Below are positions 5,129-18,168 of a stretch of DNA of 24,000 nucleotides, piece by piece. Origin of the DNA: an uncultured Actinobacillus sp. Its GTDB lineage: Bacteria; Pseudomonadota; Gammaproteobacteria; Enterobacterales; Pasteurellaceae. Within the stretch, counting starts at the first letter, position 1. Each line of letters begins with the position of its first letter. Both the position numbers and the translations under genes were made by a program. Location of the stretch: positions 118,993-142,992 of the forward strand of contig CAUTMS010000001.1 in assembly GCA_963539805.1 (NCBI GenBank). Direction: 5' to 3'. The notes under the pieces were generated by a model. The model was not told the origin of the DNA. It did not search any database and was given only the letters and a program-made list of their open reading frames with translations.

Positions 5129-8029
5129 ATGCCGTTTGCAATCGGTCAGCGTTGGATAAGCGAAAGCGAAAATAATCTGGGATTGGGAGTGATCACAGAG
5201 GTAAACAACCGCACCGTGACGATTTTCTTCCCCGCCGCCGAAGAGACGCGGATTTATGCTGCGGCCGGCGCACCGCTGACTCGCGTGCTGTTTAATGCGG
5301 GCGATACGGTCACTCACCGGCAAGGCTGGCAGGCGCAAGTGATGGAAATTACGGTCAATAATTTGACCGCACTTTATCGGGTTAAACGGCTGGATAACGG
5401 TGAAGAAGCGGTGTGGAAAGAAATGGATCTCGCCCATCAAATCCGCTTCAGCAAACCGCAGGATCGCCTGTTCGGCGGGCAAATCGATCGCAGCGACCGT
5501 TTTGCCTTGCGTTATCAGGCGTTATTGCATCAACAGGCGCAATTTCAATCTCCTTTGCGTGGCTTGCGCGGTATTCGGGCGGGATTAATTCCCCATCAGT
5601 TGCATATTGCGAAAGAAGTGGGGCAACGCCTTCATCCGCGCGTATTGCTGGCGGACGAAGTGGGATTAGGGAAAACCGTGGAAGCGGGCATGATTTTACA
5701 GCAACAAATTTTCGCCGGACGAGCGGACAGAGTGCTGATTATTGTGCCGGAAACCTTGCAACATCAATGGCTGCTGGAAATGTTGCGTCGTTTCAATTTG
5801 CATTTTTCCTTATTTGACGAAGAACGGGCGGCGGATTTTGCCGCGACGGAGGAGAGGGACGAACGTAATCCCTTCGACAGCGAAAATTTGATTATTTGTT
5901 CGCTGGATTGGCTGATTTCCCAGCCTAAACGAGGGGAACAGGCATTGCGGGCGCAATTCGATTTACTGATTGTCGACGAAGCGCATCACCTGGCATGGAC
6001 GCCGGAAGCCGTCAGTCCGGAATATCGGCTGGTTGAAGGTTTGGCGAAGCGGATTCCATCCGTCCTGCTGCTAACGGCGACACCGGAACAATTAGGTCAG
6101 CAAAGCCATTTTGCGCGTTTGAAATTATTGGATGCGGATCGTTTTTATGACTACGACGCGTTTGTTGCCGAACAACGGCATTATCGGCCGGTGGCGGAGG
6201 CGGTGCAAACCCTGTTGGCGGAGAAACCGTTAAGTGCGGCGGAAAAAAACGCGATTTCCGATTTATTGGCGGAACAGGATACGGAGCCGCTGTTTAACGC
6301 GTTGGACAGCCGGAATGAAGCGGAAAAAGCCTCGGCTCGTCAGGATCTGATCAGCAGTCTGATTGACCGCCACGGCACCAGCCGCGTGCTGTTCCGTAAT
6401 ACGCGCCGAGGCGTGAAAGGCTTTCCGCGTCGGGTTTATCACCAAATCAATCTGGCGCTGCCGAAACAATACGTTGAAGCCGTTACAGCGGCCTGTTTGT
6501 CAGGCGAAAATCCGGAACATGACTTGTTTTATCCGGAACCTCTGTTTTGCTATAAGGAACAGGGAAACAAATGGTGGAATTTCGATCCGCGCGTGGAATG
6601 GTTGATCACTTTTTTGAAAAATCATCGCAATGAAAAAGTGCTGGTGATTTGCCGACAGGCTCAAACGGCGATTCGACTGGAACAGGCGTTGCGCGAAAAA
6701 GAAGGTCTTCGCAGTGCGGTCTTCCATGAAAATTTATCCGTTATTGAGCGGGATCGTGCCGCCGCTTATTTTGCCGATCAGGAAAACGGCGCACAGGTTC
6801 TGTTAAGTTCCGCTATCGGTTCCGAAGGGCGAAACTTTCAGTTTGCCTGCCGTTTGGTGCTGTTTAATTTGCCGGAAAATCCGGATTTATTGGAACAATG
6901 TATCGGGCGCTTGGATCGTATCGGGCAACAGCGGGATGTCCAAATTTACGCGCTCTGTTTCGCGGATTCACCGCAAAGGGTGCTGACGGATTGGTATCAT
7001 CAAGGGTTAAATGCGTTTGAGGAAACCTGTCCGATGGGCGCGGCGTTATTTGAAAAGTGCGGTCAAAAATTGCGAAGTTTTTTGCAACATCCTACCGAAT
7101 CGGCGGGCTTTGATAGGTTCCTGAAGGAAACCGAGAAGCAGCGTTTACAGCTGAAAAGGGAACTGGAAGAGGGGCGCGATCGTTTGTTGGAACTGAATTC
7201 AAACGGCGGTGACGAGGCGCAACGGCTGGCCGAGGCGATTCGGGAGGAAGATTACGATACCGGGTTGGTAAATTTCGCCCTGAATCTGTTTGATGTTATC
7301 GGCGTGGAACAAGAAGATTCGGGCGAAAAATCCATTGTGATTACACCGACGGGCACCATGTTGATACCGGATTTTCCGGGGCTGAAGGAAGACGGCGTCA
7401 CGGTAACCTTTGATCGCGAGTTGGCATTAGCTAGGGAAGAACTGGAATTTTTAACCTGGGATCATCCGATGTTGCGTAACGGTATTGATTTAGTGGTTTC
7501 CGGCGATATCGGCAAAACGGCGGCGTCATTGCTGATTAACGATAAATTGCCGCCCGGCACGTTGCTGCTGGAATTGATTTATGTGGTGGAAAGTCAGGCG
7601 CCGAAAGGCTTGCAACTTAATCGTTTCTTACCGCCTACGCCGCTACGTTTGTTGCTGGACGGTAAAGGTCGGGATTTGGCGGCGCAAGTGAGTTTTAGCC
7701 GGTTGGAAAGGCAGTTAAAGCCAATGGATAAATATGCGGCGAATAAAATGGTGAAAATGGTCCGTCCGAATATCGGAAAAATGCTGGTCATGGCGGAACA
7801 ACAGGCTGCCGAGCGGGCAAAAGCGGTGATTGCAGAGGCGCAACAACAGGCGGATTCGGCGTTAAGCCATGAGCTTAATCGTCTGAACGGGCTAAAAAGT
7901 GTCAATAAAAATATTCGTCAGGACGAAATTGACAACCTGGAAACGCTTCGCATTCAATCTTTGTCGGCGCTGGCGAAGGCGAATTGGCGGCTGGACAGCT
8001 TACGCGTGATCGTGAGCAATAAATCGTGA
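5129..8029 (+). CDS. rapA: RNA polymerase-associated SNF2-family ATPase RapA (HepA)
   Basis: The N-terminus [21 protein letters not shown] is characteristic of RapA. Helicase motifs are present: [11 protein letters not shown], the DEAH box in LIVDEAHHL, and a C-terminal helicase domain. 966 aa. Confidence 0.95.
5366..5374 (-). repeat. Uptake signal sequence core (inside rapA)
   Basis: Exact ACCGCACTT. Confidence 0.9.
7055..7063 (+). repeat. Uptake signal sequence core (inside rapA)
   Basis: Exact AAGTGCGGT. Confidence 0.9.
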
Positions 8030-8183
8030 TTTTTTCATGTTGATGCTTTTAACCGGGATTTCCGTCATCTTGAGAAAATTGTGTTAAACGCTTTTTCACT
8101 TCATATGGCTTCTATATTTATTCAAAAAAACAGGTGAAAACTGAAGAATCTTTAATGTCGCATAATTTTATTTCTCAGGGTAT

Positions 8184-8197
8184 TGCAACCGTTTGCT
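8184..8197. promoter_or_regulatory. Candidate LacI/GalR-family (PurR-box-like) operator overlapping a candidate -35 of the TAXI-TRAP operon
   Basis: TGCAACCGTTTGCT matches 9 of the 10 specified positions of the generic TGnAAnCGnTTnCA operator pattern. It overlaps TTGCAA (8183-8188), which lies 18 nt upstream of TATATG (8207-8212). Confidence 0.3.
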
Positions 8198-8299
8198 TAA
8201 ATCTGATATATGTAGCAACACGCCGACGAGATATTTTCCGCTTCGTCGGCGCAAACACAATATAATCCGATTAAAAGCGCTTATCATGGAGTGCAGCCT

Positions 8300-9262
8300 A
8301 TGAAAAAATTATTCAAACTCTCTCTTGTTACTGGTATGGCTTTAGCGTCGCTAAATGTTCATGCCGAAGAAAAATTCATCACTATCGGGACCGGTGGTCA
8401 AACCGGCGTGTATTATGTGGTGGGTCAGTCTATTTGTCAGTTAGTGAATCGTGATACGGCGAAAACCGGCGTGAAATGTAATGCGCCTTCAACCGGCGCT
8501 TCCGTGGCGAATCTGAACGCCATTGCCGATCATCAAATGGACATGGGAATTGCCCAATCCGACTGGCAATATCACGCCTATAACGGTTCAAGTTCTTTTG
8601 AAGGTAAGAAAAACGAAAAATTACGTGCCGTTTTCTCGCTTCATCCGGAACCGTTTACATTAATGGTGCGTGATGATTCCGGTATTAAATCTTTTGACGA
8701 TCTGAAAGGCAAACGTGTGAATGTGGGCGATCCGGGCTCGGGCACCCGCGCCACCATGAATGTTATTCTGGCGGCTAAAGGCTGGACGGATAAGGATTTC
8801 AAAGTGGCTTCCGAATTAAAACCGGCGGAAATGGCCTCTGTAATGTGTGATAACAATCTGGACGCGATTACCTATAATGTGGGCCATCCGAACGGGGCGC
8901 TGAAAGAAGCGGCGGCTTCCTGCGATTCTCATTTGGTGCCGGTAACGGGCGAAGCCATCGATAAATTGGTGGCGGATCATTCTTACTATGCGAAAGCCGT
9001 GATTCCGGGCGAATTATACAAAGGCACTGACAATCCGGTGGAAACTTTCGGGGTGTATGCGACGTTGGTGACCTCCGAAGATGTGGATGCGGATAAAGTT
9101 TACGCGGTAGTGAAAGCGGTGTTCGATAATTTTGACCGTTTTAAACGCTTGCATCCGGCGTTTGCCAACCTGAAACAGGAAGAGATGATCACCAACGCCT
9201 TATCCGCACCTTTGCATGAAGGCGCCGTCCGTTATTACAAGGAACGTGGTTGGATTAAATAA
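8300..9262 (+). CDS. TAXI-family TRAP transporter solute receptor (periplasmic binding protein)
   Basis: Signal peptide MKKLFKLSLVTGMALASLNVHA followed by ITIGTGGQTGVYYVVG, typical of TAXI receptors. The start is set at the ATG at 8300, with GGAG at 8288-8291. Confidence 0.85.
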   Translation: MKKLFKLSLVTGMALASLNVHAEEKFITIGTGGQTGVYYVVGQSICQLVNRDTAKTGVKCNAPSTGASVANLNAIADHQMDMGIAQSDWQYHAYNGSSSFEGKKNEKLRAVFSLHPEPFTLMVRDDSGIKSFDDLKGKRVNVGDPGSGTRATMNVILAAKGWTDKDFKVASELKPAEMASVMCDNNLDAITYNVGHPNGALKEAAASCDSHLVPVTGEAIDKLVADHSYYAKAVIPGELYKGTDNPVETFGVYATLVTSEDVDADKVYAVVKAVFDNFDRFKRLHPAFANLKQEEMITNALSAPLHEGAVRYYKERGWIK

Positions 9263-9279
9263 AATCTCTCGTTTTTTTA

Positions 9280-9346
9280 ACCGCACTTTTTCTTGATTTC
9301 GGCGCGCTGTGCGTAGCTATCAACGTAAAAGTGCGGTCGTTTTTTT
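9280..9346 (+). terminator. Inverted USS pair plus T-run between the receptor and permease genes; candidate intercistronic attenuator/terminator
   Basis: ACCGCACTTTT (9280-9290) pairs with AAAAGTGCGGT (9327-9337) across a 36-nt loop, followed by a T7 run at 9340-9346. Confidence 0.5.
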
Positions 9347-9409
9347 GTTATTTTTTCTCCTTGTCGCTCGAATCGGCTACGGGGAGTGTTACTTGGAAGG
9401 AACCCGTCT

Positions 9410-12052
9410 ATGTCAGCAGATATGTCAGCCAAAAAATCGATTGATTATGATGATTTACAGGACATGGTGGCGTCAAATGATGCCGGGGGGCGCACGCCTC
9501 GCGGTTTTGCCAAAAAACTCATTGTTGTCACCGCTATTTTGTGGTCCGTTTTTCAACTTTATTACACTTCGCCGCTGCCTTATTGGTTGCAGGAAGTGCT
9601 AACCCATCACGGATGGGATATTAATGTGGTGGTGGACGACACCAAAGCGCGCTCTATTCATCTGGCGTTTGCTTTGTTTCTTGCTTATCTGTCGTTTCCG
9701 GCCTTCGCCACTTCGCCGAAGCAGCATATTCCGACGCTTGACTGGATTCTGGCGGTGAGCGGCGCATTTTTAGGGGCGTATTACCTGTTTTTCTACGAAG
9801 GACTAGTGAAACGTTTCGGTGCGCCTAATCTGCAGGATATTATTGCGGGCTGTTGCGGCGTGTTGTTATTGCTGGAGGCGACCCGTCGCAGTTTAGGTTT
9901 GCCGTTGGTGGTCATTGCCGTCGTGTTTTTGTTGTATAACTTTTTCGGCCAATATTTGCCGACGGATTGGATCATCAGTCATCGTTCCGGTTCACTGTCT
10001 CAAATTGTCAACCAGCAATGGATTACTACGGAAGGCGTGTTCGGCGTGGCATTAGGGGTTTCGACCAAATACGTGTTCCTGTTCGTGCTGTTCGGCGCAT
10101 TGCTGGATAAAGCGGGAGCGGGCAACTATTTTATCAAAACCGCTTTTGCTTATCTCGGACATTTAAGCGGCGGCCCGGCGAAAGCGGCGGTCGTATCTTC
10201 CGCTTTAACCGGCTTGGTTTCGGGCTCTTCCATTGCTAATGTGGTGACGACCGGAACCTTCACAATCCCAATGATGAAGCGCGTGGGCTTTACGCCGGAA
10301 AAAGCGGGTGCCGTTGAGGTCGCGTCTTCGGTAAACGGTCAGCTTATGCCGCCGGTCATGGGGGCCGCCGCCTTCCTGATGATCGAATACGTCAATATGC
10401 CTTACAGCGAATTGATTGTTCACGCCTTTTTGCCGGCGCTTATTTCGTATATCGCCTTGGTTTATATCGTCCATATTGAAGCCTGCAAAATGGGGCTGAA
10501 AGGCTTGCCGAGAACCGATCCGCCAAAACCTCTGCTGATGGTGCTGATTCGCGTGCTGGCGTCGTTTCTGGTGATTTGCGTAACCTATTTTATTCTCGAA
10601 TTTTGCCTCGGCTGGATTAAACGTGCGGCGCCCGATTTTTCGTTCCTGATTGTCAGTGTATTATTGTTCGCGGCGTATTTATTGCTGATTCGCCGTGTAG
10701 CCCGTTTTCCGGATTTAGAACCGGATGACCCGAATGCCAAAATCGCCGTCTTGCCGTCCGTGAAGCCGACGGTGAATGCCGGATTGCATTATTTGCTGCC
10801 GGTGGTAGTGCTGATGTGGTGTCTGATGATTGAACGTATGTCGCCGGGATTATCGGCGTTCTGGGGGACTTTGGCATTGGGCATGATTTTGTTGACACAG
10901 CGTCCGTTGCTCAGCCTGTTCCGAAAAAGTCACGAAAATCTGACCGCACTTTTCCGTCAGGGATTGCAAGAATTGGTTGACGGTTTGGAAACCGGCGCGC
11001 GGAATATGATCGGGATCGGTATTGCTACCGCCACCGCCGGTATTATCGTCGGTTCGGTGTCGTTGACGGGCTTCGGCGTACAGTTGGCGAGCATCATCGA
11101 ATATCTGTCCATGGGTAATATTTTGCTGATGTTGATTTTGGTGGCGATATTCAGTTTGATTCTCGGTATGGGATTACCGACCACGGCGAACTATATCGTA
11201 GTGTCTTCGCTGATGGCGTTGGTGATTGTTGAAGTGGGTAAACAAAACGGCCTTATCGTGCCGCTTATCGCCGTGCATATGTTCGTTTTCTATTTCGGGA
11301 TTATGGCGGATGTCACCCCGCCGGTGGGCCTGGCGTCCTTTGCCGCTGCGGCGATTTCGGGCGGCAGTCCGATTAAAACCGGGGTGGAAGCCTTTTATTA
11401 CAGCCTGCGTACCGCTATTTTGCCGTTCCTGTTCATCTTCAATACGGATTTATTGCTGATTGATGTGGGTTGGGCGAAAGGCATATTGGTTTTCGTTGTG
11501 GCGGTGATCGGGATTATGGCCTTTACCGCCGCCAGCATGGGATATTTCTTCCGTTTCAATAAACGTTGGGAAACCGTGTTGCTGCTATTTGCCGCGTTTA
11601 TGCTGTTTCGTCCGGGATTTTTCATGCAGCATATTTCGCCGACGGAGCGGTATATCGAACCGGCGAAACTGGTGCAGGAAATCGGACAAACGCCGGTGGG
11701 ACGAAACCTCACCCTTAAAGTGGCGGGTGTGAATCCTTACGGCAAGCCTATCGAATTTTATTCTCAACTTAGCGTACCGGAAGGAAAAACGGGCGAAGAA
11801 CGTTTGGAAAATCTCGGCCTGACCTTGCTGGATACCGGGGAAAAAATTGAAATCAACGGTGTTGAAACGCCAAAAATCCTGATTGATAATGTTACCCTCG
11901 ATTCGCCTGCGGCCAAAGCCGGCCTGAATTGGGATCAAACCATTATCGAAGTGGCGGTGCCGCAAAATTCTTTAGCGAAAGAATGGATGTTTATCCCCGC
12001 CTTGTTATTGATTGCGGGCATTGTCTGGAATCAGCGCCGCCGTCCGGAATAG
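9410..12052 (+). CDS. TRAP transporter fused permease (TAXI-associated 4TM/12TM fusion) with a C-terminal extra-membrane extension
   Basis: About 880 aa and highly hydrophobic. Motifs include GSSIANVVTTGTFTIPMMKR and GIMADVTPPVGLASFAAA. The start is set at the ATG at 9410, with GGAAGGA upstream. The last ~150 aa are soluble-like and end in one further TM helix. Confidence 0.85.
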   Translation: MSADMSAKKSIDYDDLQDMVASNDAGGRTPRGFAKKLIVVTAILWSVFQLYYTSPLPYWLQEVLTHHGWDINVVVDDTKARSIHLAFALFLAYLSFPAFATSPKQHIPTLDWILAVSGAFLGAYYLFFYEGLVKRFGAPNLQDIIAGCCGVLLLLEATRRSLGLPLVVIAVVFLLYNFFGQYLPTDWIISHRSGSLSQIVNQQWITTEGVFGVALGVSTKYVFLFVLFGALLDKAGAGNYFIKTAFAYLGHLSGGPAKAAVVSSALTGLVSGSSIANVVTTGTFTIPMMKRVGFTPEKAGAVEVASSVNGQLMPPVMGAAAFLMIEYVNMPYSELIVHAFLPALISYIALVYIVHIEACKMGLKGLPRTDPPKPLLMVLIRVLASFLVICVTYFILEFCLGWIKRAAPDFSFLIVSVLLFAAYLLLIRRVARFPDLEPDDPNAKIAVLPSVKPTVNAGLHYLLPVVVLMWCLMIERMSPGLSAFWGTLALGMILLTQRPLLSLFRKSHENLTALFRQGLQELVDGLETGARNMIGIGIATATAGIIVGSVSLTGFGVQLASIIEYLSMGNILLMLILVAIFSLILGMGLPTTANYIVVSSLMALVIVEVGKQNGLIVPLIAVHMFVFYFGIMADVTPPVGLASFAAAAISGGSPIKTGVEAFYYSLRTAILPFLFIFNTDLLLIDVGWAKGILVFVVAVIGIMAFTAASMGYFFRFNKRWETVLLLFAAFMLFRPGFFMQHISPTERYIEPAKLVQEIGQTPVGRNLTLKVAGVNPYGKPIEFYSQLSVPEGKTGEERLENLGLTLLDTGEKIEINGVETPKILIDNVTLDSPAAKAGLNWDQTIIEVAVPQNSLAKEWMFIPALLLIAGIVWNQRRRPE
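10943..10951 (-). repeat. Uptake signal sequence core (inside permease gene)
   Basis: Exact ACCGCACTT. Confidence 0.9.
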
Positions 12053-12490: not shown

Positions 12491-12530
12491 AAGTGCGGTC
12501 AAAAATTCTTTCGTTTTTTTGACCGCACTT
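12491..12530 (+). terminator. Inverted USS pair terminator after the usp gene
   Basis: A 15-bp perfect stem AAGTGCGGTCAAAAA (12491-12505) / TTTTTGACCGCACTT (12516-12530) with a 10-nt loop. Confidence 0.75.
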
Positions 12531-12858: not shown

Positions 12859-13479
12859 ATGATGATCAAAAAAGTCGTAGAAGAATATCTAAATCAAATT
12901 CAGGTAGAAAAATATTCAATCATTATTATCAATCCTCTTGATGAGATATCTATTATTTCCAATCAGCCACAAGCCTGGGAACAGGATTTCATTAAAATGA
13001 AACTGCATTTGAGAAGTAATATAGTTTTAAAAGCGAAAGAAAAAATAACGCCGTTCTGGTGGTCGGCGGAAAGTGCGGATAATGAAGTATGTAGAAAATT
13101 AGTGGAAAAATATAAAATTCGCTGCGGAATTACCTTTGTCATGAAGATAAAATGTGAGCATGTTATTTTTACCTTATATTTTAATGAAAACGACCCAAAT
13201 TTTTTTAATTTATATCAAAAAGAAAAACACAGAATTTTGTTTGAGATCCTTAGTCTGTTTGAGGAAAATTATAAACGAGAGCCAATAGTTAGTCTCACTG
13301 GTAGAGAGAAAGAGGTGTTAGACCTGCTAAAAATAGGGAAGACATATTCGGAAATAGGAATGATTTTAGGGGTGACGGAAAGGACGGTCAGATTCCATAT
13401 CACCAATGTATTGGCTAAACTGGATGTTACTTCTGTGAAATATGCTATTGTGAAAGCTATGGTTGAAGGTATTATCTGA
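12859..13479 (+). CDS. LuxR-family transcriptional regulator: quorum-sensing-type N-terminal ligand-binding-like domain plus C-terminal GerE/LuxR HTH
   Basis: The C-terminus LTGREKEVLDLLKIGKTYSEIGMILGVTERTVRFHITNVLAKL is a LuxR-type HTH. It carries the invariant E150/L154/G160 spacing (TraR E178/L182/G188). The N-terminus keeps the spacing W40-x3-F44-x8-S53-N54-x13-W68, which equals TraR W57-Y61-D70-P71-W85. Confidence 0.8.
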   Translation: MMIKKVVEEYLNQIQVEKYSIIIINPLDEISIISNQPQAWEQDFIKMKLHLRSNIVLKAKEKITPFWWSAESADNEVCRKLVEKYKIRCGITFVMKIKCEHVIFTLYFNENDPNFFNLYQKEKHRILFEILSLFEENYKREPIVSLTGREKEVLDLLKIGKTYSEIGMILGVTERTVRFHITNVLAKLDVTSVKYAIVKAMVEGII

Positions 13480-13491
13480 TAGTCTCAATAT

Positions 13492-13533
13492 AATAAGAGG
13501 TAAACCCTTTTACTACGGGAATTGCCTCTTATT
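13492..13533. terminator. Candidate bidirectional hairpin between the convergent luxR-family gene and the operon end
   Basis: AATAAGAGG (13492-13500) pairs with CCTCTTATT (13525-13533). The loop is long at 24 nt, so this is only a moderate candidate. Confidence 0.4.
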
Positions 13534-13537
13534 ATGA

Positions 13538-13984
13538 TTACTTTTTAAAATTTATGATTATTGCCCCGATAATAACAAAAATTACACCGGTAACGCGAGC
13601 AACGGATATTGAATGTACCGGTACGTTAAGTAAACCGAATTTATCAATTACTAATGCTGCGATAACCTGCCCTGCTACCACTAAAACCAGAAAATTAGCA
13701 GCGCCGATAAGCGGTATGGCGAATGTCCCAATTACAAGAAATGCAACACCCATAGCCCCACCTAACCATGCCCACCACGGAGCGCTTAAGATTGTGTCGT
13801 TTGGTAACGGAGCCTTGAAGATAAGAATAAGAAACACCATGAGAACGATACTTACCAGAGCGGAAACCAGAGATGCCGTTACCGGGTTTCCCAGAATTTT
13901 CGATAATTCCGCGTTAGCGCCTCCCTGTATAGGTAATGCAACCCCTGCCAGAAAGGCACAGATTAAACTAATAACGTATTGCAT
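13538..13984 (-). CDS. Small DMT-superfamily inner-membrane transporter (YdcZ/DUF606-like); putative exporter
   Basis: 148 aa and entirely hydrophobic, with 4-5 predicted helices. The N-terminus LAGVALPIQGGANAELSKILGNPVTASLVS resembles the YdcZ family. The start is set at the ATG at 13984, with AAGGA upstream, 11 nt after the HAD stop. Confidence 0.55.
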   Translation of the reverse strand: MQYVISLICAFLAGVALPIQGGANAELSKILGNPVTASLVSALVSIVLMVFLILIFKAPLPNDTILSAPWWAWLGGAMGVAFLVIGTFAIPLIGAANFLVLVVAGQVIAALVIDKFGLLNVPVHSISVARVTGVIFVIIGAIIINFKK

Positions 13985-13995
13985 ATTTCTAATCC

Positions 13996-14688
13996 TTACC
14001 ATAAGCTGGAATTTAATAAACATCTATCAACCCGAAGGATAATATCTTTTGTAATATCAGTGAATTTATTTACCATGCATTTAACACCAGTATTTATCAT
14101 TTCTTCCCGCTGAAAATTATGCGGCATTGATGCAGGAACACCAATAAAACCGGTATTTAATGCTTTACACACTTCAGCTACTCGGTTTATATCATCAATG
14201 AACACAACTTCATCAAAGTTTAATTTGAATTCTTCTTTTACGATTTCAAATACACCGGGGCGGAAAGCATTGATATCAATATAAGGCTTATCTTTGTCAA
14301 AATATTTCGCATAGGGTGCTAAAAAACGATCAAAACTATACTCTTTATTTCGCCCACCATAACAGGTTAGTTTTGCTCCCGTGCTATTTAATAACGCTAA
14401 TGTTGATTCAATACCAGCGCGAACCTGTACTGGATGATCTTTAATATACTGTTCTCGTATTTTAAAGAAATCTTTAATGACTTTTTCACCGGAGTAAGGA
14501 AGTTTACAGGCAAGTGCCAGATTATGACCGGCTGTGATTTGAGGTGAACCCCATACGCTACGTTCAATTAACGGCGTATATTCTACACCCAGAGATTCAA
14601 CAAATATTTTTATTGCCGGACTGTATGTGTCATTTAGCACAACTCCGTCACTATCAATAGCAAAAAGTTTAATTTTTTTCAATTTCAT
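13996..14688 (-). CDS. HAD-superfamily hydrolase (putative phosphatase)
   Basis: Motif I FAIDSDGVV has the DxD nucleophile pair at D12/D14, and motif IV is VVFIDDIN. 230 aa. AAGGA RBS, 11 nt after the ketosynthase stop. Confidence 0.7.
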   Translation of the reverse strand: MKLKKIKLFAIDSDGVVLNDTYSPAIKIFVESLGVEYTPLIERSVWGSPQITAGHNLALACKLPYSGEKVIKDFFKIREQYIKDHPVQVRAGIESTLALLNSTGAKLTCYGGRNKEYSFDRFLAPYAKYFDKDKPYIDINAFRPGVFEIVKEEFKLNFDEVVFIDDINRVAEVCKALNTGFIGVPASMPHNFQREEMINTGVKCMVNKFTDITKDIILRVDRCLLNSSLW

Positions 14689-14699
14689 AGAATTATCCT

Positions 14700-15917
14700 T
14701 TATTCATATTTAGAAAAGATTAAGGCGGCATTTTGGCCACCAAATCCAACAGAAGTACTGAGTACATTTTTCACATGAATATCACTGATCGTATTAGTGG
14801 CAATTTTAACTTTTATTTCTTTATCAATGTTTCTTAAACCTGCAACTGGTGGAATTTTATTATTTACGATTTTTAATATCGAGAACACGGCCTCTATTGC
14901 ACCTGAGGCTGCCAAACTATGTCCTGTAACCCCCTTTGTTGACGTCACATAAGCACTTTTACCAAAAAAATCATATAGAACTTTTCCCTCAATACGATCA
15001 TTAAGTAGTGTTGATGTGCCATGTGCATTGATACACTGAATATCGGTAGATTCCAGTACGGCATCGTTTAAGGCTGCACAGATGGATACTGAAAGCCCAG
15101 AACCATTAGGTGATGGTGATGTAATATGATATGAATCATTAGCTGAACCATATCCAGCTACTGAAGCATAAATTTTCGCTTTACGATCTAAAGCCGATGT
15201 TTCTTTCTCTAGGACAAGCATTGCTGCACCCTCTGAAATAACAAAGCCATCTCTTTCATTATCAAAGGGCCGTGATGAATAGGCTAGATTAGTATTTTTA
15301 GAAAGGGCTCCGATCTTTGTAAAGGAGGATACAACCAGCGGCGTTATAGGTGCTTCACTTCCGCCAGCAAGAACAATATCACATATCCCATTTTCTATGA
15401 GATATTTGCCCATCCCAATAGAATCAGTTCCAGATGCACATGCCGTTCCGATAAGATAAGTTGGTCCTTTTATACCGAGTTCAATAGCAATATTTCCAGT
15501 TGCCATACTTCCCATTGTAGAAAGTAAATATAACGAACCTATAGTGCCAACTCCTTCGTTATATGCTCTTTTGTTTAATTTCTCAACAGAAGTGACACCT
15601 GCCAGTGAATTACCTAAAATGACCCCGACTTTAACGGTTTTATTATCAATATCTAACTTTGCGTCTTCAATGGCTTTTTTTGCTGCATAGAGAGCATATT
15701 GAATAAACGGATCAATTCTCCATATCAGTGATTTATTCAAGCAATCTGAGGGAGTAAAATTTTTGATAGGGCAGGACCATGATACGTCAAGAGTATTCAA
15801 ACGATTATCAATGATCGTCATACTTTTTCCTTTAATCAGATTTTCCCAACACTCGTCAGGAGTAAGGCCGGCAGAAGAAATAATTCCCATACCGGTAACA
15901 ACAACTTTATGTTTCAT
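14700..15917 (-). CDS. Beta-ketoacyl-ACP synthase, FabF/FabB-like (KAS I/II type)
   Basis: The N-terminus is KVVVTGMGIISSAG. The catalytic triad context is intact: GTACASG (Cys), NAHGTST (His) and TGHSLAASG (His). The start is set at the ATG at 15917, with AAAGGTG upstream. Confidence 0.85.
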   Translation of the reverse strand: MKHKVVVTGMGIISSAGLTPDECWENLIKGKSMTIIDNRLNTLDVSWSCPIKNFTPSDCLNKSLIWRIDPFIQYALYAAKKAIEDAKLDIDNKTVKVGVILGNSLAGVTSVEKLNKRAYNEGVGTIGSLYLLSTMGSMATGNIAIELGIKGPTYLIGTACASGTDSIGMGKYLIENGICDIVLAGGSEAPITPLVVSSFTKIGALSKNTNLAYSSRPFDNERDGFVISEGAAMLVLEKETSALDRKAKIYASVAGYGSANDSYHITSPSPNGSGLSVSICAALNDAVLESTDIQCINAHGTSTLLNDRIEGKVLYDFFGKSAYVTSTKGVTGHSLAASGAIEAVFSILKIVNNKIPPVAGLRNIDKEIKVKIATNTISDIHVKNVLSTSVGFGGQNAALIFSKYE

Positions 15918-15935: not shown

Positions 15936-16157
15936 CTATTTTTTCAGCTCTTTTACTCTCTTACTTATTGTTTGTAATGTGTCATTGTTAACTAAAGACA
16001 AACTACCTTCGGATAAACCAAATTCTCGTTCAATTTCTATTTGAAATTCAACTATGCATATTGAATCTAGTCCTATGCTTTCGAGTGGTTCGTCATTTTT
16101 AATATTATTTTCTGACACACCAAAAGTTTCAGTTAATATTGTTTCTAATTTTTCCAT
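15936..16157 (-). CDS. Acyl carrier protein (dedicated, discrete)
   Basis: 73 aa and acidic. It has the phosphopantetheine attachment motif GLDSI (Ser32). Its start overlaps the upstream gene's stop by 13 nt. Confidence 0.8.
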   Translation of the reverse strand: MEKLETILTETFGVSENNIKNDEPLESIGLDSICIVEFQIEIEREFGLSEGSLSLVNNDTLQTISKRVKELKK

Positions 16158-17053
16158 ATATTCCTCTCGATCTTTAATTTTAAACTTGCCATAATAGATT
16201 CATTTTGAAGTACATTGACATTAAAAAAATATATGTCTTTATATAAAGATACCTTTTGAATTTTAACAATTGCAGGTATATTGATTTCGACGTAATTAAA
16301 AAAATCTCCATCAATTTCAGTAGGTATGAAGTATCCTATATTTTCATGCATCTTCGATAAATAGTAATAGCATAATTGTTTCGCAGCCTCAGTTAAGTTC
16401 ATCCCCGTTATATGATCCTGTTCATGATCATTAAATGATTTATTATTTTTATTAATGTTAATAATAGTACTGATATAAGGGGGAGTATCATGTAAACGTG
16501 TCAAAATCACATTCCTTGTTGAGTTATAGCATACGCTCTCAGGTTGTAAATTCTCTTTTAATTCTATTTGTTGAGGACTGGTTTGAATATTTTTGCGGAT
16601 TAATTTATAGCTGGCAGAACTCACATATGTAACATTTATTTTTATTTCACTTATTACTCTGTCATTTTTACTGAAAATAATGTTAAATACATTTTTTGTC
16701 ATTTTTTGGTTAATAGAATTTTTAGTAAAAATATCTACTTTAATATTATTGGAATTTCTCAATGGGGTTATATTATAATTAATAGACCAATTTCTAAGTA
16801 GAAATTTTGAATCTAAACATATACCAAATTCTTTATGAGACAAATATGTTTCAATCTGCCGAGCGCACTCTAATAAATAAAGAGGATTTATAAACCCTAT
16901 TGAAGCGTTAAAATCGGAATAAAATGGGTGATCATTTATTACACGACAATCGGATTGAAATCTTTTATTTGAAACTCGTAAAATATTTTCGATAAACACT
17001 TCACTATCATTTAATTTATGAGTGTATAATTTCAAATCTTTTAAATTTTCCAC
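16145..17053 (-). CDS. AfsA-like protein (two A-factor-biosynthesis hotdog repeats); predicted beta-ketoacyl-ACP:DHAP acyltransferase / butenolide synthase
   Basis: 302 aa, the same size as AfsA/ScbA/MmfL. Repeat 1 has DHPFY (41-45) and NPLYLLECARQ (56-66). Repeat 2 has NDHEQDHITGMNLTEAAKQ (208-226). These match the AfsA repeat signatures DHPFF...DPLL..EA.RQ and NDHVPGMLLLEAARQ as I recall them. GTG start at 17053 with AAGGAGG 5 nt upstream. Confidence 0.7.
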   Translation of the reverse strand: MENLKDLKLYTHKLNDSEVFIENILRVSNKRFQSDCRVINDHPFYSDFNASIGFINPLYLLECARQIETYLSHKEFGICLDSKFLLRNWSINYNITPLRNSNNIKVDIFTKNSINQKMTKNVFNIIFSKNDRVISEIKINVTYVSSASYKLIRKNIQTSPQQIELKENLQPESVCYNSTRNVILTRLHDTPPYISTIININKNNKSFNDHEQDHITGMNLTEAAKQLCYYYLSKMHENIGYFIPTEIDGDFFNYVEINIPAIVKIQKVSLYKDIYFFNVNVLQNESIMASLKLKIERNIWKN

Positions 17054-17099
17054 AGTTCCTCCTTTTAGTTTTATTAAATACCTATTAATGAGTAATGAA

Positions 17100-17119
17100 A
17101 ACTGTCAGTTTTGACAGGT
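17100..17119 (-). promoter_or_regulatory. lux-box-like dyad upstream of the AfsA-like operon
   Basis: The minus strand reads ACCTGTCAAAACTGACAGTT. It contains a perfect inverted repeat, CTGTCA (17102-17107) and TGACAG (17112-17117), and fits the CTG-N10-CAG architecture. It is identical at 13/20 positions to the V. fischeri lux box ACCTGTAGGATCGTACAGGT as I recall it. A 5/6 match to the -10 hexamer, TTTAAT (17078-17073), places the dyad centre near -43. Confidence 0.5.
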
Positions 17120-17186: not shown

Positions 17187-17426
17187 GGAACGGATAATCC
17201 GGTGGAAACTTTCGGGGTTTACGCCACGTTGGTGACCTCGGAAGAGGTGCCGGCGGATAAAGTGTATGCCGTGGTAAAGGCGGTTTTTGACAATTTCGAT
17301 CGTTTCAAACGCACTCACCCGGCGTTCGCTCATCTTAGCAAGGAAGAGATGATTCATAATGCTTTGTCGGCGCCGTTACATGAGGGCGCGGCACGTTATT
17401 ATCGCGAACAGGGTTGGCTAAAATAA
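17187..17426 (+). pseudogene. 3' remnant (last 79 codons) of a second TAXI-family TRAP solute-receptor gene
   Basis: [21 protein letters not shown]...YYREQGWLK-stop is collinear with residues encoded at 9023-9262 of the intact receptor gene. 63 of 74 residues are identical over the track ORF. An in-frame TAA sits at 17184-17186 and no 5' part is present. Confidence 0.85.
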
Positions 17427-17464
17427 TTCTGACGGTATAATGTCAGGCATTTTGTGGTCGCAAT

Positions 17465-17490
17465 CGTGTTTTTTCCGACGAAAAAACACG
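17465..17490 (+). terminator. Hairpin terminator downstream of the TAXI remnant
   Basis: CGTGTTTTTT (17465-17474) pairs with AAAAAACACG (17481-17490) across the loop CCGACG, followed by ATTTTACTTTTT. Confidence 0.6.
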
Positions 17491-17508
17491 ATTTTACTTT
17501 TTATTATT

Positions 17509-18168
17509 ATGGCATTAATTGAATACAATCCGCCTCAAACACTTTATTTGAACGTTGTTTATCACGATAATCACATGCTTGTGCTGAATAAACCCAGCGG
17601 GCTGCTGTCCGTACCGGGTAATCAGCCGCAGTATTATGACAGCGCCATGAGCCGGGTGAAAGAAAAATACGGATTTTGCGAACCCGCTCACCGCCTGGAT
17701 ATGGCAACCAGCGGCATTATTCTGTTCGCCATGAGCAAACTGGCGGACAGCGAGCTGAAACGTCAGTTTCGCGAACGGCAAACGAAAAAATTTTATCAGG
17801 CGTTGGTGTGGGGACATGTTAAACCGGACAACGGTACGGTAAATTTGCCGCTGATTTGCGATTGGGAAAACCGCCCGCGCCAGCGCATCGATTTCAATTC
17901 GGGCAAAAGTGCGGTCACAAAATTTGAAGTTTTAGAACGTTTGCCGAATAACAGCACGCGGGTGAAGTTAACGCCGATTACCGGTCGTTCCCATCAGTTG
18001 CGGCTGCATATGCTGGCGTTAGGACATCCTATTTTAGGCGATAAGTTTTATGCTCCTCCGCAGGCGAAAGCCATGGCGCCGCGTTTGTATCTGCATGCGG
18101 AAAGTTTAACCGTTACGCATCCGGTTACGGGGGAATCCATGACCTTTTATTGTCCTGCGGATTTTTAA
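17509..18168 (+). CDS. rluA: 23S rRNA/tRNA pseudouridine synthase RluA
   Basis: Close collinear match to E. coli RluA: NPPQ, VLNKPSGLLSVPG, HRLDMATSG, ELKRQFRER, LPLICDWENRP, PITGRSHQLRLHMLALGHPILGD, ending PADF. The start is set at the ATG at 17509. Confidence 0.9.
   Translation: MALIEYNPPQTLYLNVVYHDNHMLVLNKPSGLLSVPGNQPQYYDSAMSRVKEKYGFCEPAHRLDMATSGIILFAMSKLADSELKRQFRERQTKKFYQALVWGHVKPDNGTVNLPLICDWENRPRQRIDFNSGKSAVTKFEVLERLPNNSTRVKLTPITGRSHQLRLHMLALGHPILGDKFYAPPQAKAMAPRLYLHAESLTVTHPVTGESMTFYCPADF
17907..17915 (+). repeat. Uptake signal sequence core (inside rluA)
   Basis: Exact AAGTGCGGT. Confidence 0.9.

Follow-up and report, generated by a model that had tools for sequence, protein, structure and literature searches.

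The locus described here lies in a stretch of 24,000 nucleotides from an uncultured Actinobacillus sp. of the Pasteurellaceae (assembly GCA_963539805.1, contig CAUTMS010000001.1, positions 118,993 to 142,992 of the forward strand), which is referred to below as the window and numbered from its first letter. It holds a cassette in which five genes on the minus strand, close-packed or overlapping, form an operon. In order, these genes encode an AfsA-like protein (17053-16145), an acyl carrier protein (ACP; 16157-15936), a beta-ketoacyl-ACP synthase (KAS; 15917-14700), a phosphatase of the HAD superfamily (14688-13996) and a YdcZ-type membrane protein (13984-13538). The gene of a LuxR-family receptor is convergent with this operon, and a perfect palindrome resembling a lux box precedes it. 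The cassette forms an island of 4.2 kb with a G+C content of 34%, against 47-48% in the flanks. As argued below, it probably constitutes a self-inducing butenolide or butyrolactone signal circuit that has a LuxR receptor in place of the TetR one. The preliminary description of this DNA dealt with the afsA-like reading frame as a single gene and so overlooked the conserved operon, the LuxR-type receptor with its altered pocket and the conserved lux box.

The afsA-like gene (16145-17053, minus strand) starts with a GTG codon, and AAGGAGG is present 5 nt upstream of it. Its 302-residue product had been described as an AfsA-like double hotdog because of two repeat motifs. Both were recovered in the translation (DHPFY...LLECARQ at residues 41-66 and NDHEQDHITGMNLTEAAKQ at 208-226). 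When the Pfam profiles were searched, PF03756 (AfsA) matched with E=1.4e-28 and 100 bits (cutoff 24) over two stretches that represent tandem repeats. Up to E=1 the protein gave no other family match, whether to FabA/FabZ, to thioesterases or to AvrD. The NCBIfam model for ScbA/BarX (NF041195) aligned over residues 10-285 with 116.6 bits and did not reach its equivalog cutoff of 200. This indicates that the AfsA-like protein belongs to a separate subfamily, for which the name ScbA/BarX is unfit. An AlphaFold model made with 14 homologues was confident (predicted local distance difference test, pLDDT, 89.7; predicted template modelling score, pTM, 0.91) and consisted of two helix-in-sheet hotdog units, in which a sheet surrounds each of the long central helices 57-74 and 217-235. 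Profile and model therefore bear out the double hotdog. Foldseek searches of the PDB with this model gave double-hotdog acyl-ACP thioesterases, TesB and dehydratases of fatty acid and polyketide synthases as the best matches (E~1e-11). A search of the AfsA profile against the PDB sequences yielded spurious matches alone (E>=0.02), and no relative of AfsA has a solved structure (PMC13454427). For that reason structure cannot separate AfsA from other double hotdogs and the family call rests on sequence, according to which the protein is a genuine member of the AfsA family (PF03756) and not a ScbA/BarX equivalog.

Mutational studies of ScbA showed residues E78, R81, R174, E240 and R243 to be essential (PMC13454427). 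ScbA itself was outside the alignment used here, and its residue numbers were mapped by motif onto an alignment with five ScbA/BarX proteins annotated as such in RefSeq (PGAP). Residues E62, R65, R153 and E222 of the window protein are invariant with these five and match ScbA E78, R81, R174 and E240. With the Streptomyces proteins AfsA, ScbA and BarX it shares the tandem PF03756 double hotdog, the E-x-x-R-Q motif of the central helices (in the second helix with Lys for Arg at position 225, see below) and the Arg of the linker.

The presence of such a protein outside the actinomycetes, as claimed previously, was borne out by the position of the cassette in a Pasteurellaceae chromosome. This occurrence is true but not new. 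Creamer et al. (2021; PMC8209734) found PF03756 in 12 phyla; Proteobacteria accounted for 21% of the matches, and Citrobacter, Dickeya and Pseudomonas were among the genera named. The orthologues already carry the RefSeq label 'AfsA-related hotdog domain-containing protein'. To speak of an unrecognised Gram-negative lineage was therefore an overstatement. By genetic means Sharpe et al. (2020; PMC7426152) found that Ruegeria pomeroyi needs an AfsA-domain gene both to kill and to transcribe the cluster in which this gene lies. The AT-richness of the gene was correctly noticed (26.4% G+C against 47-48% in the window flanks), but it does not reflect long residence in a low-GC lineage, since the gene lies in a horizontally acquired island.

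The gene that follows afsA (15936-16157, minus strand) encodes an ACP of 73 aa with a GLDS motif (PF00550, E=7.4e-9). It begins before afsA ends, with an overlap of 13 nt, and an ACP gene was present directly after afsA in every cassette locus. The third gene (14700-15917, minus strand) encodes a FabF-like beta-ketoacyl-ACP synthase II of 405 aa, which contains PF00109 and PF02801, reaches 393 bits with NCBIfam PRK07314 (cutoff 387) and has the Cys-His-His motifs in its translation as GTACASG, AHGTST and GHSLAASG. It is predicted to make the beta-ketoacyl-ACP. The product of the last gene (13538-13984, minus strand; 148 aa; PF04657, E=2.1e-37) is a predicted inner-membrane exporter of the DMT type.

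The phosphatase encoded between them (13996-14688, minus strand; 230 aa) is predicted to dephosphorylate a butenolide phosphate. Neither its motif I (FAIDSDGV, which includes both Asp residues) nor the acidic pair of motif IV (FIDD) varies among eight orthologues of 70-81% identity, and the RefSeq name of the orthologue is 'HAD family hydrolase'. When a profile of the orthologues was compared with the PDB, the sugar-phosphate phosphatase TM_1254 was the best match (E=0.0067), with the DxD motif aligned. A tblastn search of 72,556 plasmids revealed relatives of the HAD protein in Streptomyces alone (21 records), with full-length identities of 33-44% and E values down to 1e-52. These relatives, called 'HAD family phosphatase', lay inside gamma-butyrolactone (GBL) loci in all six records sampled. 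A gene for an ScbR-family receptor adjoined in each of the six and ScbA/BarX was within 2 kb in five, and a reductase of the SDR/glucose-1-dehydrogenase type was usually found beside the HAD gene. Thus the cassette has counterparts of the core of the Streptomyces GBL loci in its afsA and HAD genes, which supports a phosphorylated intermediate derived from dihydroxyacetone phosphate (DHAP). It lacks the reductases that the Streptomyces loci have. As a family that occurs between ScbA/BarX, ScbR and an SDR-type reductase, these phosphatases are candidates for the enzyme that removes the phosphate in the classical GBL pathway.

These results bear on the idea that the AfsA-like protein is a thioesterase or dehydratase acting on an ACP-bound beta-ketoacyl chain, with release of, for example, a beta-keto acid or methyl ketone, and that the role of the HAD protein is unrelated. 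The nearest solved structures are indeed acyl-ACP thioesterases, TesB and synthase dehydratases, an AfsA structure is not available for comparison, and a reportedly essential Arg is replaced by Lys. However, the sequence profiles give AfsA and no other hotdog family, and a phosphatase of the family seen in Streptomyces GBL loci makes sense only together with a phosphorylated, DHAP-derived intermediate. This makes an activity other than acyl transfer to DHAP very improbable.

The luxR gene (12859-13479, plus strand) encodes a receptor of 205-206 aa with an autoinducer-binding domain (PF03472, 28.2 bits; cutoff 23) and a GerE helix-turn-helix domain (PF00196, 54.7 bits, E=7.5e-15). The model of this protein had a pLDDT of 87.9, and the top Foldseek matches were the full-length receptors QscR, LasR, RhlR, SdiA, TraR and CviR (E=1e-14 to 1e-9). 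In the structures of TraR and LasR the amide of an N-acyl-homoserine lactone (AHL) is held by D70 and Y53, and W57 contacts the lactone carbonyl. The receptor was aligned with a TraR sequence that is 100% identical to the Ti-plasmid traR product, and with bridging LuxR homologues. In the window protein W57, W85 and G113 are kept, but Y53 is replaced by Q, Y61 by F, D70 by S and P71 by N. The six AHL-sensor residues W57, Y61, D70, P71, W85 and G113 (TraR numbering) accordingly read WFSNWG instead of WYDPWG. Throughout the clade position 53 is Q, L or M, Y61 is replaced by F, D70 is invariably Ser, and P71 is replaced by N, E or H, while bridging LuxR homologues in the same alignment retain Y, D and P. 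Because the WYDPWG signature is not kept and the exchange of D70 for Ser is invariant, the cassette LuxR is not a canonical AHL receptor. A pocket in which the lactone contact is kept and the amide contacts are lost would be expected for an amide-free lactone. Similar motif changes have been described for the non-AHL receptors PluR and PauR (PMC10134790). No LuxI-type synthase (Autoind_synth) was detected among the open reading frames of at least 100 aa that were scanned in the window and in the cassettes, and no TetR gene was present in the cassette of any host examined, a LuxR-family gene being found in its place.

The same receptor could be read as an SdiA-type eavesdropper on the AHLs of other species, in which case the AfsA product would be an output and not the LuxR ligand. 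Its AHL-receptor fold, the retention of W57, W85 and G113 and the lack of a LuxI in the window and in the cassette would all suit such a role. On the other hand, the amide-binding D70 is Ser in every member of the clade, Y53 and Y61 are replaced as well, and the same kind of substitution is found in the non-AHL receptors PluR and PauR (PMC10134790). Besides, the receptor was always accompanied by the synthase in the loci examined. Eavesdropping is for these reasons considered improbable. An altered pocket motif combined with an adjoining non-LuxI biosynthetic operon is what sets class C LuxR solos apart, and both were found here. The cassette thus appears to fit the class C concept, that is, a receptor for an endogenous non-AHL signal. 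To our knowledge PluR and PauR are the only class C solos that have been characterized.

The lux-box-like palindrome CTGTCAAAACTGACAG (17102-17117), of the form CTG-N10-CAG, lies 48 nt upstream of the afsA start and is the predicted operator of LuxR. It has no second match in the window, even when up to two mismatches are allowed. All 14 cassette loci have the pattern CTGTCA-N4-YGACAG upstream of afsA, for an estimated 0.05 or so chance matches, and it is missing only at a Gilliamella locus (see below) that is also without LuxR. A -10-like hexamer, TTTAAT (17073-17078, minus strand), is located 23 nt downstream of the box core, and the same hexamer occurs 22-23 nt past the box in the Citrobacter, Vibrio, Klebsiella and Phytobacter loci. 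Its position would place the centre of the box near -43, which is the class II activator position of a lux box. In the copies of Serratia and Salmonella a T to C change affects one side of the box and is not compensated on the other, which favours a protein site over a hairpin.

That the palindrome serves as an intrinsic terminator or structural hairpin instead of a protein operator was suggested by a terminator scan, which flagged a stem of 6 bp with a 4-nt loop followed by TTTTC. Yet on the strand of the operon the palindrome precedes the first gene, so that there is no gene to terminate. Its arms are conserved in sequence, while the one-sided change just mentioned is uncompensated, it is absent where LuxR is absent, and a second copy occurs in the intergenic region between an integrase and a porin gene in E. 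coli A38 and Klebsiella sp. I138. A role as terminator or hairpin is consequently a very remote prospect.

The second CTGTCA-N4-YGACAG box of these two strains is situated upstream of the porin gene, and the porin gene may therefore belong to the LuxR regulon. The coordinates of the extra boxes are 6375-6390 of the Klebsiella sp. I138 locus and 7456-7471 and 2829-2844 of the E. coli A38 locus. A third copy with one mismatch is present elsewhere on the E. coli A38 element. It was also observed that the gene calls of two AfsA homologues, those of Vibrio mimicus (325 aa, 8001-8978 of the locus) and Klebsiella aerogenes (344 aa, 14629-15663), are over-extended at the N-terminus. The open reading frames as called enclose the conserved promoter box, and the alignment favours a start about 30-40 codons later.

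The core order afsA-ACP-KAS-HAD-exporter(-TK-TK)-luxR, in which TK stands for a transketolase half, recurs in other hosts. Exercitatus varius (formerly Bisgaard Taxon 10), to which the host of the window is close, has the arrangement of the window, with the same island at the same site and with AfsA and LuxR proteins that are 88% and 93% identical. The enteric and Vibrio carriers are Citrobacter braakii, V. mimicus, Klebsiella sp. I138, K. aerogenes, Salmonella enterica subsp. diarizonae, Serratia fonticola, E. coli A38 and E. coli BCE049, and two unassigned contigs have the same order as these. Three loci were retrieved by means of the LuxR protein alone, and all three also held the AfsA operon. 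Identity to the window proteins is highest for the HAD phosphatase (70-81%) and KAS (62-71%) and lowest for LuxR (51-67%) and AfsA (42-52%). In the enteric and Vibrio versions an MFS transporter is found where the Pasteurellaceae version has YdcZ, and a transketolase split into two genes, one for the N-terminal and one for the pyrimidine-binding half, is inserted between the MFS gene and luxR; the Pasteurellaceae version is without it. A gene annotated as 'transketolase' (6331-7185 of the locus) was also seen in the GBL locus of Streptomyces sp. NBC_00334, at 1.6 kb from the HAD gene.

The AfsA clade of the cassette is small. When 1.84 billion cluster representatives were searched exhaustively with HMMER, 254 matched at E<=1e-3 but only nine at E<=1e-30. 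Three loci were found in 185,579 GTDB species-representative genomes, and among 5,426 complete genomes of E. coli the cassette occurs in two. The enteric cassettes are flanked by a tyrosine integrase and by AlpA/DUF2857/VirB4-TrbL genes, which indicates that they are cargo of integrative and conjugative elements (ICEs), and the V. mimicus cassette is located beside TraU/TraN and insertion sequence (IS) elements. In every host examined the G+C content of the cassette (31-41%) is lower than that of the 5 kb upstream (42-54%). A tblastn search with AfsA of the 72,556 plasmids mentioned above matched Streptomyces and Kitasatospora alone (21-27% identity). A plasmid origin of the enteric cassettes was therefore dismissed, and they are taken to be chromosomal or ICE-borne and not on known plasmids.

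In the bee-gut symbiont Gilliamella sp. Pra-s52, whose locus is one of the three from the GTDB scan, a more distant AfsA homologue of 30% identity was found in an afsA-ACP-MFS arrangement (7863-10738 of the locus), adjoining a LysR regulator and an IS integrase. KAS, HAD, LuxR and the box are absent from this locus. Because of its different, reduced arrangement it was left out of the cassette count, and it may represent a separate lineage of AfsA use in the Gammaproteobacteria.

The foreign nature of the island is also apparent from the distribution of the Haemophilus (Hin-type) uptake signal sequence (USS) AAGTGCGGT, of which the window contains 20 copies for 0.18 expected, often as inverted pairs after genes (for example at positions 996, 4066, 9280, 12491, 17907 and 23103). 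Between 12531 and 17906 there is not a single copy, where about five would be estimated from the density of approximately one USS per kb outside this gap. This census marks the host as a naturally competent Pasteurellaceae of the Hin-USS type and the island as foreign. An inverted AAGTGCGGT pair at 12491-12530, the Usp terminator, is the last host-type sequence before the left border of the island. At the right border a scar is formed by 74 codons of a TAXI-TRAP solute-binding protein gene (17202-17426, plus strand), which is the remnant of a truncated paralogue. It shares 84% identity with the last 74 residues encoded by the intact gene (8291-9262) and is also found in the loci of E. varius. 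Neither border of the island showed convincing att-like direct repeats, and no RNA genes were detected when the window was scanned with Rfam and for tRNAs. Between the convergent stops of luxR and ydcZ lies an inverted repeat (13490-13535) with arms of 14 nt that are 93% complementary, which is a candidate bidirectional terminator. Beyond the right border an inverted repeat (17462-17493) with perfect arms of 14 bp around a loop of 4 nt falls inside the 5' end of the longest RluA-like reading frame (17440-18168). Related contigs call this gene from a later start (219 aa), so that the hairpin is probably intergenic, and it is possibly the terminator of the truncated binding-protein gene.

For the substrate, product, ligand and mode of activation of the cassette we infer the following course of events. 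The FabF-like KAS would extend a fatty-acyl primer with malonyl-ACP on the ACP of the cassette, and the resulting beta-ketoacyl-ACP would be sequestered from FabG. AfsA would then transfer the beta-ketoacyl group to the hydroxyl of DHAP, after which the ester would undergo an intramolecular aldol condensation to a butenolide phosphate. Acyl transfer to DHAP and cyclization to the butenolide phosphate are established for AfsA of Streptomyces griseus, and the window protein is the predicted beta-ketoacyl-ACP:DHAP acyltransferase (butenolide phosphate synthase) of the cassette. The phosphate would be removed by the HAD phosphatase. As the cassette has no reductase of the BprA/ScbB type, a 2-acyl-3-hydroxymethyl-butenolide is the most likely product, unless reductases of the host convert it to a butyrolactone. 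Export may proceed through YdcZ or, in the enteric versions, through the MFS transporter. LuxR would bind this AfsA-derived lactone rather than an AHL and activate the afsA operon from CTGTCA-N4-TGACAG near -43, in a positive autoinduction loop like that of luxI/luxR. AHL receptors can reportedly respond to Streptomyces GBLs, as the title of an article by Liu et al. of 2021 has it, and that title makes the proposed ligand plausible.

With the same enzymes the product could instead be a bioactive secondary metabolite and not a population-density signal, for instance an antimicrobial butenolide used in competition, for which LuxR would act as a pathway-specific activator that is possibly ligand independent, like CarR. 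R. pomeroyi needs its AfsA-domain cluster to kill competitors by a diffusible route (PMC7426152), some LuxR solos are known to act without a ligand (PMC10134790), and a dedicated exporter and carriage on ICEs together with transporters and porins would also be in keeping with a metabolite. Against this, the enzyme set is minimal, with no tailoring enzymes in the Pasteurellaceae version, the receptor has an intact ligand-binding fold in every copy, and the predicted operator on the promoter of the synthase is a hallmark of autoinduction. Moreover, the afsA gene of R. pomeroyi is also needed for the transcription of its own cluster (PMC7426152), so that the roles of signal and metabolite are not exclusive. 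A metabolite pathway of this kind is regarded as rather unlikely, though less so than the other alternatives.

Several points weigh against the self-inducing lactone circuit. The NF041195 score of AfsA (116.6 against 200 bits) and its identity of 18-27% to the Streptomyces enzymes imply that substrate and product could differ. At the position of ScbA R243 the protein has K225, which is Lys across the cassette clade and Arg elsewhere, although the exchange is a nominally conservative one. The Pfam matches of the HAD protein are weak (E=3.5e-4) and under the cutoff. The split transketolase has no place in the scheme, so that the enteric and Vibrio cassettes may yield another product than the Pasteurellaceae one. 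Both the -10 element and the position of the box near -43 are deduced from the nucleotide sequence, and no second LuxR target is evident within the window.

The cassette combines features of systems that have been described separately. It resembles the Streptomyces GBL loci in having a HAD phosphatase of the same family and neighbouring genes for synthase and receptor. It differs from them in its LuxR-family receptor, a predicted activator that would use a lux box, instead of a TetR-family repressor such as ArpA or ScbR. In addition, it has its own ACP and KAS, where Streptomyces draws on the fatty-acid synthase, and it is without SDR or ene-reductase and resides on a mobile element in a Gram-negative host. 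In the MmfL/MmfH/MmfP system for methylenomycin furans (AHFCA) of Streptomyces coelicolor SCP1, too, an AfsA homologue is paired with a phosphatase and with a receptor linked to the cluster, and the replicon is mobile. However, MmfR belongs to the TetR family and an MmfH-like oxidoreductase is absent from the cassette, which makes a furan product less likely than a butenolide. With LuxI/LuxR it shares the two-domain receptor fold and a CTG-N10-CAG element near -42.5 on the promoter of the synthase, an architecture of positive feedback. Unlike that system it has no LuxI, the residues for the AHL amide are lost and the receptor is about 30 residues shorter at its N-terminus. The cassette is thus neither a GBL system of the Streptomyces type, as it has no TetR receptor, nor an AHL system, as it has neither LuxI nor WYDPWG.

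Also among the closest known systems are PpyS/PluR and DarABC/PauR of Photorhabdus, in which a LuxR protein with an altered WYDPWG motif also lies beside a non-LuxI operon that includes ketosynthase chemistry (PMC10134790). Those operons make a pyrone and a dialkylresorcinol, unlike the AfsA- and DHAP-derived lactone predicted here, and the motifs of the Photorhabdus receptors (TYDQCS and TYDQYI) differ from WFSNWG. The cassette LuxR keeps the Trp that contacts the lactone. Genes SPOA0339-0344 on the megaplasmid of R. pomeroyi DSS-3 also include a horizontally acquired AfsA-domain gene in a Gram-negative host that is needed for transcription of its own cluster (PMC7426152). Compared by its description, this cluster has another gene set and is tied to the killing of competitors, and LuxR is unmentioned in the paper (PMC7426152). 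The 2023 survey in which the classes of LuxR solos were defined has no mention of AfsA, hotdog, ketoacyl, transketolase or butyrolactone (PMC10134790). No account of a cassette that joins AfsA to a LuxR protein with an autoinducer domain was found in open-access papers and bioRxiv, and an earlier description elsewhere is possible.

In its widest form the proposal is that a LuxR-family receptor senses a butenolide or GBL made by AfsA. This would be natural quorum sensing in Gram-negative bacteria through a new LuxR ligand chemistry, in which the AfsA and HAD core of the Streptomyces GBL pathway is joined to a proteobacterial receptor and lux box, as a private channel that is carried on ICEs and islands and spread over Pasteurellaceae, Enterobacterales (including Klebsiella, Salmonella and E. 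coli) and Vibrio. We give this proposal, with the spread included, about even chances. The AHL/LuxR systems of Gram-negatives and the GBL/TetR systems of actinomycetes are treated as separate, and the cassette, if the proposal is true, would be a natural hybrid of the two, with a new class of LuxR ligand. The link of its phosphatase to Streptomyces GBL loci points to the dephosphorylation enzyme of the classical GBL pathway. With synthase, carrier, phosphatase, exporter, receptor and operator, the six-gene cassette is a ready-made system that can be tested, and receptor and box form a candidate orthogonal inducible switch for synthetic biology. If correct, the proposal would also give a function to one clade of the 'LuxR solos' that occur in Enterobacterales of clinical relevance, and the cassette would be a complete pair of signal and receptor that is able to cross bacterial families on conjugative elements.

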